Made by a program: the position numbers and the translations under genes
NCBI GenBank assembly: GCA_965208105.1
Contig: OZ242318.1
Coordinates: 128,001 to 192,000 of the forward strand
Direction: 5' to 3'
Source: Candidatus Latescibacterota bacterium
GTDB lineage: Bacteria; Latescibacterota; UBA2968; UBA8231
Length of the DNA stretch: 64,000 bases
Shown: piece after piece, positions 8,195-55,580 of the stretch
Position numbering within the stretch: position 1 is the first letter of the stretch
Layout: each line of letters starts with the position of its first letter
Notes under the pieces: model-generated
The model's input: only the letters and a program-made list of their open reading frames with translations
The model's database searches: none
What the model was told of the DNA's origin: nothing

Positions 8195-8362
8195 CTAGTG
8201 TGCCGTCGCAGAAATATGTCGCCATTATTCCGCCGATCCATCCCGGCTCACGGCGTTGCCTTCACTCGCCGTACACCACTGGTACGACTCGCTCAGGCGC
8301 CTTGTGAGCCTGGCGCCTCGGCGGCCCAATTGCGTCAACCTATCTCTGCGACGGCACACTAG
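8195..8362. mobile_element. 168-bp CTAG-flanked fold-back element (MITE-like), copy A
   Basis: Perfect 18-bp TIR CTAGTGTGCCGTCGCAGA / TCTGCGACGGCACACTAG; near-identical to 37430-37597 and, inverted, to 53722-53887. Confidence 0.9.
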
Positions 8363-37429: not shown

Positions 37430-37597
37430 CTAGTGTCCCGCCGCAGAAATATGTCGCCATTATTCCGCCGATCCTTCCCGGCTCACGGCGTTGCCTTCAC
37501 TCGCCGTACACCACTGGTACGACTCGCTCAGGCGCCTTGTGAGCCGGGCGCCTCGGCGGCCCAATTTCGTCAACCTATCTCTGCGGCGGGACACTAG
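37430..37597. mobile_element. 168-bp CTAG-flanked fold-back element, copy B
   Basis: Perfect 18-bp TIR CTAGTGTCCCGCCGCAGA / TCTGCGGCGGGACACTAG; 7 differences from copy A by eye. Confidence 0.9.
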
Positions 37598-52474: not shown

Positions 52475-53725
52475 ATGAACCGACTGTGGTCCTATGGATC
52501 CGGCAACCCGGGAAGCCGGGATGGCAGGTTGTTCGGTCCCCACATGGCCGAGGAGAATCCCTTCGACCCCGACGAAATCGTCGTCGCCGAGCAGTGGGCT
52601 TCTGACGTTGTGCTGATCAACCGCGAGACCGGAAAATTACGGGTGGTTTTCGGGGAGCGCGGCGTTCCCGGAGGGGGAAAGCGACTGAACCTGGCGCACT
52701 CGGCACACTTCATGCCTTCCGGACCCTACGCCGGGCACATTTTGCTTACCGAGTTCCGCGGTGAACACCGGGTAATGATAGTCGAGCGCGACAAGGGTGC
52801 CGTTCTCTGGTGCTACACCGGGTGCCGTCGTCCTCTCGAGGCGATCCACTGGGACGATGATCACATCATGGTTTCCGACGGTGATGAAATCGTGAAGATC
52901 CGCCTCCGGGACCAGCAGGTGGTCTGGAATTTCCCCGCATGGCGCGCTTTCTACCTGCAGAAACTCCCGCCGCAGCCGTACGGTGCATCCTATGGGGGCG
53001 ATCTTCTGGTCCCCTTTTTCTCGTCGGACCCCAGCGGAGTCTGGGAGATCGACACCAGCACGGGAGAAAAGGTGTGGTCGTACGGGGAGAGGAAGGGACC
53101 GGGACACGGAGACCTCTACGACATGGTTTCCCGGGCGGCCTGTGCCCTGCGCTTCGGTATCCACGAGAAGTTCGGTGGCTACACCATCATCTGCAGCGAA
53201 CGCTCGCGAATTCTCTGTGTGAACCGGGACAAGGAGCTGGTTTGGGAGTTGGGGGGAGGCAGTGGGGACCATCTCGCCCCTGGGACGCCCTACGCCCTGC
53301 TGCCAACCTACATTGCGCCGACCACGAGAGGCACGCTCCTGGTCACCGACTGGGGCTTGAACATGATCTACGAGCTCGATCCGTTCCATATTCCACCGCG
53401 CTCGGTGAAGGACGCCTACCTCTGCAGGGAGGAGGAAATCGGGGATGATTTCACCGACAGCGGTACCATCGAGTCGCGGGGTTACGGCCATGTGACCGTC
53501 CAGGTCTTCAATCGACACCGAAACACGGGGTTGAACTGGCAGGTACTGGGCTCCCACAATGCAAGAGACTGGCAAGTCGTCCACTCTCCTCCAGAGAGGC
53601 TTGGCGGCGGGGAGTCGACCTGGACCACCATTTCCGAGCCGTGGAACTTCATCAAGACCCGGGCCGGGTCCGCAGTTCGGGGTGAGTCCGCGGTAGTAGA
53701 AGTATACGCCACCATGCGCCGCTAG
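52475..53725 (+). CDS. Hypothetical beta-propeller protein (PQQ/arylsulfotransferase-like repeats)
   Basis: AAGGAGG RBS; repeated xxW motifs (GAVLWCY, QVVWNF, GEKVWSY, KELVWEL); TAG stop supplied by repeat copy C. Confidence 0.6.
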   Translation: MNRLWSYGSGNPGSRDGRLFGPHMAEENPFDPDEIVVAEQWASDVVLINRETGKLRVVFGERGVPGGGKRLNLAHSAHFMPSGPYAGHILLTEFRGEHRVMIVERDKGAVLWCYTGCRRPLEAIHWDDDHIMVSDGDEIVKIRLRDQQVVWNFPAWRAFYLQKLPPQPYGASYGGDLLVPFFSSDPSGVWEIDTSTGEKVWSYGERKGPGHGDLYDMVSRAACALRFGIHEKFGGYTIICSERSRILCVNRDKELVWELGGGSGDHLAPGTPYALLPTYIAPTTRGTLLVTDWGLNMIYELDPFHIPPRSVKDAYLCREEEIGDDFTDSGTIESRGYGHVTVQVFNRHRNTGLNWQVLGSHNARDWQVVHSPPERLGGGESTWTTISEPWNFIKTRAGSAVRGESAVVEVYATMRR

Positions 53726-53887
53726 TGTCCCGTCGCAGAGATAGGTTGACGAAATTGGGCCGCCGAGGCGCCAGGCTCACAAGGCGCCTGAGCGAGTCGT
53801 ACCAGTGGTGTACGGCGAGTGAAGGCAACGCCGTGAGCCGGGATGGATCGGCGGAAAAATGGCAACATATTTCTGCGACGGGACACT
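53722..53887. mobile_element. Fold-back element copy C (inverted relative to A/B), right CTAG interrupted by the IS110 element
   Basis: CTAGTGTCCCGTCGCAGA ... TCTGCGACGGGACACT|; the missing AG lies at 55436-55437 beyond the IS. Confidence 0.9.
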
Positions 53888-53959
53888 GATATGTATTGAC
53901 GGTTGTCAACCCCCTCCGGGGTGGTCGTTTCGGGTGTTATCTTTGCATGAGTTTGTTCG

Positions 53960-54120
53960 GGAACAGAAGGGACGCTGTAGCGACGGTTGATCCGACTGAT
54001 ATTCGCGGGTTGGTTACCGCCTGTCCTGGGTGCGTCGCGGAGCGGCCTCAATCTAGAGTCGAGGGTCAGCCTGATAGGCGCCTCATAGTGTCTTCGAGGA
54101 TTCTCCTGACCGGTCCCTTC
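53960..54120 (-). ncRNA. Predicted bridge/seek RNA in the IS right end (boundaries approximate)
   Basis: Two stem-enclosed internal loops containing GACACUA/UCUAG (target-matching) and AGGACA/AUAUCAG (donor-matching). Confidence 0.6.
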
Positions 54121-54180
54121 TGTCCCGTTTCGATTTACATGAGCAAAGGTCCTATGCCGGCTTCTGAGACGATGAGCTTA

Positions 54181-55320
54181 TCAGGCGGCGATCCGAGGCC
54201 TCCTGGCCACGAGGCGGCCGGGGCGTTTCTGCTCCCAGGCGATGGCCCAGATGAAACCCAAAAGCTCCCGCGCGATCGCGGTGCAGACTTTGTTTTTCGG
54301 CATCCCTCGCCCACTCAGCCGTCGATAGCGTCCACACAGGCGTTTCTGTGCCTTCCAGGCGATGGCCTGTATGGGGGGTGCGGTCTGTTCGGCGCGTCGT
54401 TGCAAGGCGGCCGTCTTGCGGGCGGGAAAGCGATAGCACCAGGCGGCTTCCACCAGCACGCGCCGCACGTGGGCGTTGCCCGCCTTGGTGATCGCCCCTC
54501 GCTTTTGGCGGGAGCCGCTGGAATGCTCGCTGGGGACCAGACCGACGAAGGCCATCAGTTGGCGCGGCGAGTCAAAGCGGGTGAGGTCCCCCAACTCGGC
54601 CAGGGTCGTAACCGCGGTGAGCGTGTCTACCCCGCGCAGCGCCCTCATAGCCCGCGTCTCCCCTTCCAAAGACCATCCCTCCAGCGCCTGCTGCAGGGCC
54701 TGGTCCAACCCCTGGATCCGACCTTGGGCTTCCTGTACCGCGTCCACGTATTCCTGAAAGACGATCTGCTGGGCCGGATGATCGAAGCGCTGGGTCTGCA
54801 GCCAGCGAAAGTGGGCTTGGGTCCAGCGACTGCGCCCGGAGTAGATCCGGCCGTGGCGCTGCAAGAAGCTGTTCAGCCGCTGGCGCACGCGGCGCTCGGC
54901 GTGCTTGAAGTCTTCCCGGCAGCGCTCCAGATCGCGCATCGCCTCCTGCGCTTCGTCGGGCACCCACACGGGGGTCAACTCGCCGTGTTGGAAAAGCCGC
55001 ACCAGAGACACAGCATCGCGGCGGTCGGTCTTGATGCGGTCGCCCGGCCGACGCGGGATCAGCGAGGGCGCCACCACCGTGCAGGCGTGCCCCAGGGCTG
55101 TGAGCTGACGGTAGACGCCGTAGCCGCAGGGTCCGGCCTCGTAGCAAAACCGCAACGAGGTCCCACCACGGGCCAGTTGGCCCGCCAGCTTGGACAACGC
55201 GGCGCCCGTAGACGGTATCGTTCCATACAGGTCTGGCCCTTTTCGGCCTTCACCGGCCAGGGCGACGGTGATCGAATCTTTATGTATGTCCAAGGCGACG
55301 AATTTCGTAGATTTACGCAT
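54181..55320 (-). CDS. IS110 family DEDD recombinase/transposase
   Basis: FVALDIHK (D), YEAGPCG (E), KTDRRDA (DD), GLVPSEHSSG (Ser loop), ITKAGN..RR.LVEAAW, AIAREL; GGAGGAGG RBS before ATG 55320. Confidence 0.96.
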   Translation of the reverse strand: MRKSTKFVALDIHKDSITVALAGEGRKGPDLYGTIPSTGAALSKLAGQLARGGTSLRFCYEAGPCGYGVYRQLTALGHACTVVAPSLIPRRPGDRIKTDRRDAVSLVRLFQHGELTPVWVPDEAQEAMRDLERCREDFKHAERRVRQRLNSFLQRHGRIYSGRSRWTQAHFRWLQTQRFDHPAQQIVFQEYVDAVQEAQGRIQGLDQALQQALEGWSLEGETRAMRALRGVDTLTAVTTLAELGDLTRFDSPRQLMAFVGLVPSEHSSGSRQKRGAITKAGNAHVRRVLVEAAWCYRFPARKTAALQRRAEQTAPPIQAIAWKAQKRLCGRYRRLSGRGMPKNKVCTAIARELLGFIWAIAWEQKRPGRLVARRPRIAA

Positions 55321-55580
55321 GGCCTCCTCCTTCTCGCTGGGGATAGGTCTTTGGGTGAACTCCGTTTTCCCAAAGATAACCCCCGACAACCGAGTCGGAG
55401 GAGGTCTTTCATATCTCCGTCAATACATAAGGTCTAGACGTGGCTCAGCCCGGTGAGAAGGGGCAGGGCCTGACAGGCCTCCGTACCCGCTCGGCGAGGC
55501 GGGGCTTCTCCCGTGACCACAACCTTAGTACAATACCCTGGTCGATTCGGCTCCCGGTACCCCGAACTTAATCCAAGGAG

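Follow-up and report, generated by a model that had tools for sequence, protein, structure and literature searches.

In the window, that is, the whole 64,000-nucleotide stretch of a Candidatus Latescibacterota genome analysed here (contig OZ242318.1, positions 128,001 to 192,000), an insertion sequence (IS) of the IS1111 group interrupts the outer tip of a 168-bp fold-back repeat. We consider it highly probable, at roughly 90%, that this IS is an RNA-guided element which a seekRNA/bridge RNA directs to the tips of miniature inverted-repeat transposable elements (MITEs). In the mechanism that we propose from sequence comparisons, the active IS would transpose by RNA-guided, duplication-free recombination at a CT core, and its 3' non-coding region would encode the guide RNA. 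The target loop of this RNA would pair through AAGACACUA with one strand of T-AG-TGTC and through UCUAGA with the other strand of YCT-AG, and the donor loop would pair through AAUAUCAG with the element's own right end. The word so read, Y-CTAG-TGTC, would correspond to the outer tip of the MITE (the TA target inside CTAG, followed by the first inverted-repeat bases), so that new copies would be expected to land at MITE tips, in one polarity and with the RNA-encoding end beside the body of the repeat. We observed directly the anatomy of the element, the census of its copies, the covariation within the RNA and the covariation between guides and targets.

Boundaries and anatomy of the insertion sequence

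Re-reading of the junctions on the plus strand gave ...GCGACGGGACA-CT-GATATGTATTGACGG on the left, with CT at 53886-53887 (the upstream stretch is also given as ...TCTGCGACGGGACA), and CCGTCAATACATAAGGT-CT-AG-ACG on the right, with CT at 55434-55435 and AG at 55436-55437. Excision of 53888-55435 yields GGGACACTAG, the exact inverse of CTAGTGTCCC at 53722, and restores an intact CTAG. The boundaries 53886/55435, proposed in a first-pass annotation made from the letters alone, therefore hold, as do its claims that the IS lies inside the terminal CTAG of the fold-back repeat (GGGACA-CT to its left, AG to its right) and that removing it with one CT regenerates the repeat end.

The minus-strand protein gave domain-level matches to PF01548 (DEDD_Tnp_IS110; E = 6e-13) and PF02371 (E = 2e-22), and scored 263 bits against NCBIfam NF033542, 'IS110 family RNA-guided transposase', for which the cut-off is 140. 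Its translated GLVPSEHSSG fits GL-P----S(T)G, the motif given for the C-terminal domain of the IS1111 group (Siddiquee et al. 2024, PMC11187229). The nearest solved structures were the ISCro4 and IS621 transposases, with similarity confined to a C-terminal stretch (PDB 8wt6, E = 2e-5 for IS621). As transposase gene, a 402-aa open reading frame (ORF) starting with TTG and a 513-aa ORF on the plus strand were discarded, and the ATG at 55320 was preferred; protein queries corresponded to window positions 54181-55323, i.e., one extra residue ahead of this ATG. The genome also has one unrelated IS110-family transposase gene (G000:C1:2144237-2144488; PF02371, 71 bits).

Both ends of the IS carry subterminal inverted repeats, laid out as AGACCTT + ATGTATTGACGG ... 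CCGTCAATACAT + ATC, a layout also found in relatives; these repeats measure 12 bp, and subterminal repeats of 11-13 bp, with a 7-bp extension on the left and a 3-bp extension on the right, are a hallmark of the IS1111 group (PMC11187229). The non-coding stretch downstream of the transposase gene measures 293 nt (54180-53888), compared with 115 nt upstream. Judged by its domains, motif, subterminal repeats, non-coding region and one-polarity insertion without target duplication, all read from sequence, the element is assigned to the IS1111 group of the IS110 family. A circular intermediate would be expected to form; a junction promoter built on the TTGACA just inside the right subterminal repeat was considered and found unconvincing, the spacing to any -10-like hexamer being poor in the sub-clade of the window.

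Copies of the IS in its genome

The genome of the window (G000) is a single 4.85-Mb contig, and that of a congener (G001) served for comparison. BLAST of the IS in G000 returned 12 copies, of which 11 are full-length and one lacks 120 bp internally; three short remnants were returned as well. All 12 have identical ends (CT|GATATG...AAGGTCT|AG), and seven copies are at least 99.6% identical to that in the window. At ten of the 12, ...CTGCNACGGGACACT stands beside the end of the non-coding region, with AG and unrelated DNA beyond, so that the site reads ...ACGGGACACT|AG; each of these ten sites is the tip of a separate copy of the 168-bp repeat, and the polarity never varies. For the eleventh copy (c2091329), the site is again a CT|AG tip, here of a distinct inverted-repeat element of 119 bp with CTAGTGTTG at the start of its end. 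The flanks of the twelfth (c3964971) are non-contiguous, one being within a copy of an IS630-type element and the other from elsewhere. In total, 11 of the 12 copies lie at CTAGTGT in one polarity. The first-pass annotation had proposed that the flanks of every copy be inspected, and that copies at sites unrelated to the repeat would speak against it; what was found was GACA-CT|AG of the repeat at ten copies, another inverted-repeat tip at the eleventh and rearranged flanks at the twelfth.

Both remaining copies were examined as possible off-target insertions: c2091329 sits at the tip of an inverted-repeat element, and in c3964971 the rearranged flanks hide the original target. The 119-bp element is present twice (G000:C1:2091331-2091449, and about 2758954-2759068), and one of the two bears c2091329. 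The copy c3964971 (G000:C1:3964227-3966518) cuts the IS630-type copy at an internal position and shares two private changes with c2091329; its flanks suggest a deletion or inversion between IS copies.

Further observations concern decayed copies. The pair at G000:C1:2923418-2924964 and 1994951-1996377 appear defective, one through a 1-bp deletion, with the open frame cut to 141 aa at the C-terminal domain, and the other through an in-frame deletion of 120 bp. At G000:C1:4001325-4001432 there is a remnant 85% identical to the target-binding module of the predicted seekRNA, in which the first guide differs (ACUGCACUA); it breaks off at the far tip of a repeat whose other tip bears the IS copy c4001155. 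Two old remnants are found at G000:C1:3931346-3931503 and 2949481-2949521; one preserves part of the right end (91% identity) and stands at ...GGCACT| of a degenerate inverted-repeat element, and the other consists of 41 bp of the left end with AG after it.

The 168-bp repeat and its relation to IS630-type elements

The repeat has 18-nt inverted ends and is without coding capacity. Its 18-nt end was matched six times in the window with up to three mismatches, against 0.08 expected, and the genome holds 86 full copies (15-nt end core, up to three mismatches, paired at a spacing of 161-163 nt), or 140 loci by BLAST when partial copies are included. Ten of the 86 full copies bear the IS. Among the other genomes searched, the repeat was also present in 12 of 24 from the same taxonomic family and in one of 16 from elsewhere in the class.

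The usual boundaries of a copy are CTA...TAG; asymmetric flanks (TTA...TAG, CTA...TAA, CTA...TAT) also occur, and these fit a 2-bp TA duplication inside a preferred CTAG target better than a 4-bp CTAG duplication. In G001, the locus of the IS reads GCCGCTAG|CCGTGGCTCAGCCC, with neither repeat nor IS, and from this comparison we therefore place the insertion of the repeat first and that of the IS second. The window has the repeat intact at two more places, 8195-8362 and 37430-37597. For the latter, G001 has a single CAAG where the window has CTAG-repeat-CTAG; for the former, the G001 counterpart, in diverged DNA, has a CTAG, and the alignment there is not clean. The interrupted copy starts directly after the coding sequence of an upstream pyrroloquinoline quinone (PQQ)-like beta-propeller ORF (52475-53725), whose stop codon is the TAG at 53723-53725 of the CTAG target; the congener has the same stop.

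By its behaviour the repeat is read as an IS630/Tc1-type MITE, with the qualification that no autonomous partner with its ends was found in the genome of the window, to which the search was limited (seven solo or odd ends and the DDE_3 genes were inspected). The IS630-type (DDE_3) elements of the genome were rejected as that partner, as their ends differ: these start CTAGTGC or CTAGTGG and read CTAGTGC(T/G)CTG or CTAGTGGT, with only CTAGTG in common with the repeat. One such element, of 1162 bp and with ends CTAGTGC(T/G)CTGTTAA, is present in nine full copies (G000:C1:2507548-2508709 and eight others), of which those at 756789 and 392927 adjoin a tip of the 168-bp repeat, with the CTAG in common. 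A second (L081:1366-2622) has ends ACTAGTGGT... and is directly adjoined by a 167-bp inverted-repeat element of another family, with ends CTAGTGCCTGCTTGCGCAATT (L081:2618-2784); the two together are located at G000:C1 about 3324579-3325997.

Predicted two-loop RNA of the 3' non-coding region and its covariation

A protein-guided scan of one genome per species returned 233 relatives, of which 80 were kept; the nearest were in records labelled Gemmatimonadota and Latescibacterota, and many have the ends AGAC...TGTATTGAC...GTCAATACATATC-AG. Both ends and their flanks were extracted for 34 of the 80 loci, the other 46 having one recognisable end missing from the DNA examined or too short a flank. 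From the window, and from 22 non-redundant loci out of the 34, the terminal part of the non-coding region was taken for alignment (23 rows). Twelve loci were left out: L011, L025-L027, L037, L049 and L055-L058 as redundant or from the same element or genome as a kept row, L050 for a long insertion in the non-coding region, and L064 for an unmatched left end.

RNAalifold on the 23 rows gave an outer stem enclosing two stem-and-internal-loop modules, with 38 pairs, 21 of them compensatory. In this alignment 92.6% of cells were paired, compared with 38.8-47.9% when partners were slid by one to three columns, and the covariation score was reached by none of 500 shuffles. The window RNA folded singly adopts the same shape. 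The claim of the first-pass annotation that the element is RNA-guided is thus supported, at the level of sequence, by the covariation of this two-loop RNA and by the match of its loops to the target. The RNA would be made in the cell and bound by the transposase.

Predicted guides follow their targets

The 5' ('T') and 3' ('B') loop strands of the first module vary among relatives, following the flanks, and are invariant in all 12 copies in the genome. Strand T is complementary to the AG core together with the one base that precedes it and the first bases that follow on its right. Scored as the longest exact core-spanning match at 23 loci, the T loop matched its own target over a mean of 7.2 nt, compared with 3.6 nt for the targets of other loci, and over at least 7 nt in 18 of the 23; for the B loop the means were 4.8 and 3.1 nt, respectively. 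The summed score was reached by none of 20,000 permutations of the pairing. The donor guide similarly shifts with the right end: L013 has ATAACAG, and L022, L031 and L077 have ATACCAG, with L054 as an exception. A further candidate guide, the 8-nt stretch ACGGGACA at 54128-54121 that matches the repeat end, was rejected, since relatives with other targets conserve it within the outer stem.

On this evidence the guides are predicted to read about 8-9 bases, Y-CTAG-TGTC, and not the repeat as such. The word CTAGTGTC is intact at 87 places in the genome, 74 of them repeat tips and 13 elsewhere, and it is because the repeat holds this share of the words that it would serve as a landing pad. The first-pass annotation had described the repeat family as the landing pad of the IS, which stands insofar as ten of the 12 copies are at repeat tips and needs amending insofar as a word of some 8-9 bases would be read and the repeat itself would not be sensed. 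The base before CTAG is a pyrimidine at all ten occupied tips, compared with 39 of 74 free tips (Fisher p = 0.004), a bias that fits pairing of the U before CUAG in the second guide with A or G. The same annotation also held that the IS breaks the end of its host element, and physically it does, the break in CT|AG falling where the inverted repeat meets the target TA; the insertion may impair the mobility of the MITE.

Target sites of relatives in other genomes

Several relatives reproduce the arrangement. L097, with 81% identical DNA, has the guide AAGACACUA and the site AG|TGTCCTGTCGCAGAAAT; in L098 the guide ACGACACUA matches the site AG|TGTCGTGTC at nine of nine positions; and L116, a right-end remnant in G001, adjoins AG|TGTCCCGTCGCAGAAATATG. 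The IS of L001, with a transposase 77% identical to that of the window, is at the CTAG tip of a complete 1.18-kb IS630-type element (helix-turn-helix and DDE_3 domains; inverse end 1178 nt away). In L007, L015, L022, L024, L025, L026 and L027, which come from several other phyla, the IS is at the tips of inverted-repeat elements of 65 to 165 nt ending CTAGGAG(C/G/T)CTGTCG. Tips of inverted-repeat elements were found at eight of 33 relative loci in all; at the other 25 there was no inverse partner within the downstream DNA examined (less than 250 nt for two of them). Landing at transposon tips is thus, as read from these flanks, recurrent in the IS clade and not universal.

Two observations on single relatives may be added. 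L027 has such a tip on either side, and the two form a palindrome with CTAG at its centre. The first guide of L096 (G001:C1:5044239-5045777), an 85% identical copy in the congener, is AGCGCACUA, complementary to TAGTGCGCT, the right end of the 1162-bp IS630-type element in the genome of the window; L096 itself is located at AG|TGTGCCGTCCCGAG.

Points against RNA guidance and alternative explanations

Several results weigh against RNA guidance to MITE tips as set out above. Rfam gave no matches in the element at E up to 1, and a promoter scan found no sigma-70-like promoter in the linear element (0 sites). Inspection by eye of the donor loop's 5' half for a second donor guide, one corresponding to the left end, revealed no clean covariation. 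T matches are weak, at 3-5 nt, in five of the 23 relatives (L010, L029, L047, L054, L071), and L103/L004, a near-identical deleted copy in another genome, is at AG|GTGTTCC, a site unmatched by its guide. Furthermore, 84 of the 97 perfect sites are in repeats, so that landing of ten out of ten in repeats is expected from the distribution of the word (0.866^10, about 0.24); no result therefore points to the repeat being recognised by anything more than the word.

The transposase or a host factor might instead recognise the hairpin or inverted-repeat structure of the repeat directly, with the RNA matches being incidental. The intact repeat is indeed a strong fold-back, predicted to form one long hairpin (-49.9 kcal/mol, z -8.1), and IS of other families are said, by the titles of papers on them, to target palindromic REP (repetitive extragenic palindrome) units. 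However, the loop sequences track the target across 23 relatives, as the permutations showed; the eleventh copy is at a different element with only CTAGTGT in common; and relatives occupy non-palindromic, unique sites, with no inverted partner at 25 of 33 loci within the downstream DNA examined. We hold direct recognition of structure to be improbable.

The repeat and the IS might also have spread together as a composite unit, by duplication or through the repeat's own transposase, in which case no target specificity of the IS would be needed, and the IS does always adjoin a complete copy of the repeat. Such a unit is nevertheless hard to reconcile with the flanks: beyond the IS there is only AG and no second repeat end, and 76 of the 86 full repeats are without IS. 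Moreover, the ten host repeats differ by up to 8% (pairwise identity 92-99%, median 95.8%), have seven internal orientations one way and three flipped, and are all in different outer flanks, yet the ten IS copies are 95-100% identical to one another and seven copies reach the 99.6% given above. We read the ten IS copies as independent insertions into pre-existing repeats, with no copying of a composite unit, for which we see a very slim chance.

An assembly artefact, i.e., repeats collapsed or mis-joined in a metagenome-assembled genome that is rated 8% contaminated and in which the flanks of c3964971 are non-contiguous, is scarcely credible given that one 4.85-Mb contig holds all 12 copies, each with outer flanks of its own, and given the same arrangement in other genomes (L097, L116) and an orthologous empty site.

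Table 1. Features of the IS, its predicted guide RNA and the interrupted repeat (window positions)
Feature	Position	Strand	Basis or remark
168-bp fold-back repeat copy, left CTAG through CT of right CTAG (read as IS630/Tc1-type MITE)	53722..53887		last two bases, AG, at 55436-55437
CT core dinucleotide, left copy	53886..53887		right copy at 55434-55435; CT at both junctions in 12/12 copies
Insertion sequence, IS1111 group of IS110 family, 1548 bp including one CT core (AG on transposase strand)	53888..55435	-	12 genome copies with identical ends; same ends in relatives
Right subterminal inverted repeat, CCGTCAATACAT on transposase strand, then 3-bp extension ATC	53891..53902		window sequence and relatives
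TTGACA, putative -35 box of a circle-junction promoter	53904..53909	-	just inside right subterminal repeat; conserved in most relatives
Predicted seekRNA/bridge RNA, outer stem around target-binding loop and donor-binding loop	53960..54126	-	covariation in 23 relatives; window RNA alone folds alike
Predicted donor guide, AAUAUCAG	53996..54003	-	identical to IS right end ...ATATC-AG
Predicted target guide B, CUCUAGA	54052..54058	-	UCUAG equals transposase-strand TCT-AG, so would pair with opposite strand
Predicted target guide T, AAGACACUA	54086..54094	-	GACACUA complementary to T-AG-TGTC of repeat tip, strand reading like transposase strand
Transposase gene, 379 aa, ATG at 55320 behind GAAGGAGGAGG ribosome-binding site	54181..55320	-	DEDD/RuvC-like N-terminal domain and PF02371 C-terminal domain with GLVPSEHSSG
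Left subterminal inverted repeat, 12 bp, ATGTATTGACGG on transposase strand, after 7-bp extension AGACCTT	55417..55428		window sequence and relatives
AG, severed final two bases of the repeat's terminal CTAG, then unique DNA	55436..55437		junction reading; G001 empty site

Implications

If RNA guidance holds, an 8-9-base guide suffices to confine an element almost wholly to another mobile element, and the list of repeats that offer a safe landing pad would be extended from REP, attC and Tn21 ends to MITE tips. The natural targeting of a seekRNA/bridge RNA would have been worked out in an uncultured lineage, with guide, target, empty sites and a 12-copy census from one genome. Furthermore, the 23 naturally reprogrammed relatives, in which two target guides and one donor guide can be read, should be useful for the guide rules of IS1111 elements, which are less studied than IS621.

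A broader and tentative reading, which we think unlikely as matters stand, is that this IS1111 clade is a specialised parasite of transposons, whose guides track IS630-type and MITE tips (TA/CTAG plus the first 5-7 inverted-repeat bases) and whose insertion disables the host element. It is hinted at by the 11 of 12 copies here at MITE tips, by L001 at an IS630-type tip together with the seven further relatives (8 of 33), and by the guide of L096, which matches an IS630-type element end; the 25 of 33 relatives without an inverted partner weigh against it. If true, mobile elements would be in contest at two tiers, and the natural reprogramming of the guides would be the record of it.

Comparison with known systems

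An IS1111-group element reportedly lands in a Tn21-type terminal inverted repeat. The host element in that case is a large Tn3-family transposon with 38-bp repeats. Similarly to that element, the IS described here lands in the terminal inverted repeat of another transposon and gives a nested element; it differs in its host, a non-autonomous repeat of 168 bp that is entered exactly where inverted repeat and TA/CTAG join, and of whose 86 full copies ten are occupied.

The targets described for the IS1111 group are REP (ISPa11), attC (ISKpn4, ISPst6) and a short unique site (ISEc11) (PMC11187229). As in those elements, we find a DEDD transposase, subterminal repeats with 7-bp and 3-bp extensions and a long downstream non-coding region, together with insertion in one orientation, no target duplication and natural reprogramming among relatives; likewise, the predicted RNA has two short segments, the first matching the top strand of the target and the second its bottom strand, with an overlap at the insertion point (PMC11187229). 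In particular, the seekRNAs of IS1111 elements have the top-strand match 5' of the bottom-strand match, overlapping in the target (PMC11187229), and the order predicted for the window, T (top strand) before B (bottom strand), is the same. In contrast to ISEc11, ISPa11 and ISKpn4/ISPst6, the target here is the tip of an IS630/Tc1-type MITE and not REP, attC or a unique site; the transposase, at 379 aa, also exceeds the family range of 330-350 aa, and the element, from an uncultured host, is known here from sequence (PMC11187229). No paper on IS110/IS1111 elements aimed at MITE or IS630 ends was found in the literature searched, which did not extend to ISfinder, TnPedia or supplementary tables; comparable cases may be listed in Supplementary Table 5 of PMC11208160 and among the target logos of PMC11187229.

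A bridge RNA is predicted in the right end for 93% of IS1111 elements (Durrant et al. 2024, PMC11208160). With IS621, described in the same article, the present element has in common a two-loop RNA with target and donor loops, a CT core and guides that include the core, and REP-type natural targets are listed as a further likeness. Unlike in the present element, the RNA of IS621 is upstream of the gene, the order of its guides is reversed and long subterminal repeats are absent (PMC11208160); the protein similarity is limited to the C-terminal stretch reported above.

ISPpu9 and ISPpu10 of Pseudomonas putida likewise have IS110-family copies at an invariant AG inside an abundant genomic repeat (PMC12288879). 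ISPpu9 differs from the present element in belonging to the IS110 group without inverted repeats and in having REP, and no transposon end, as its target (PMC12288879). Set beside these systems, the known mechanism is unchanged and the target class is new.

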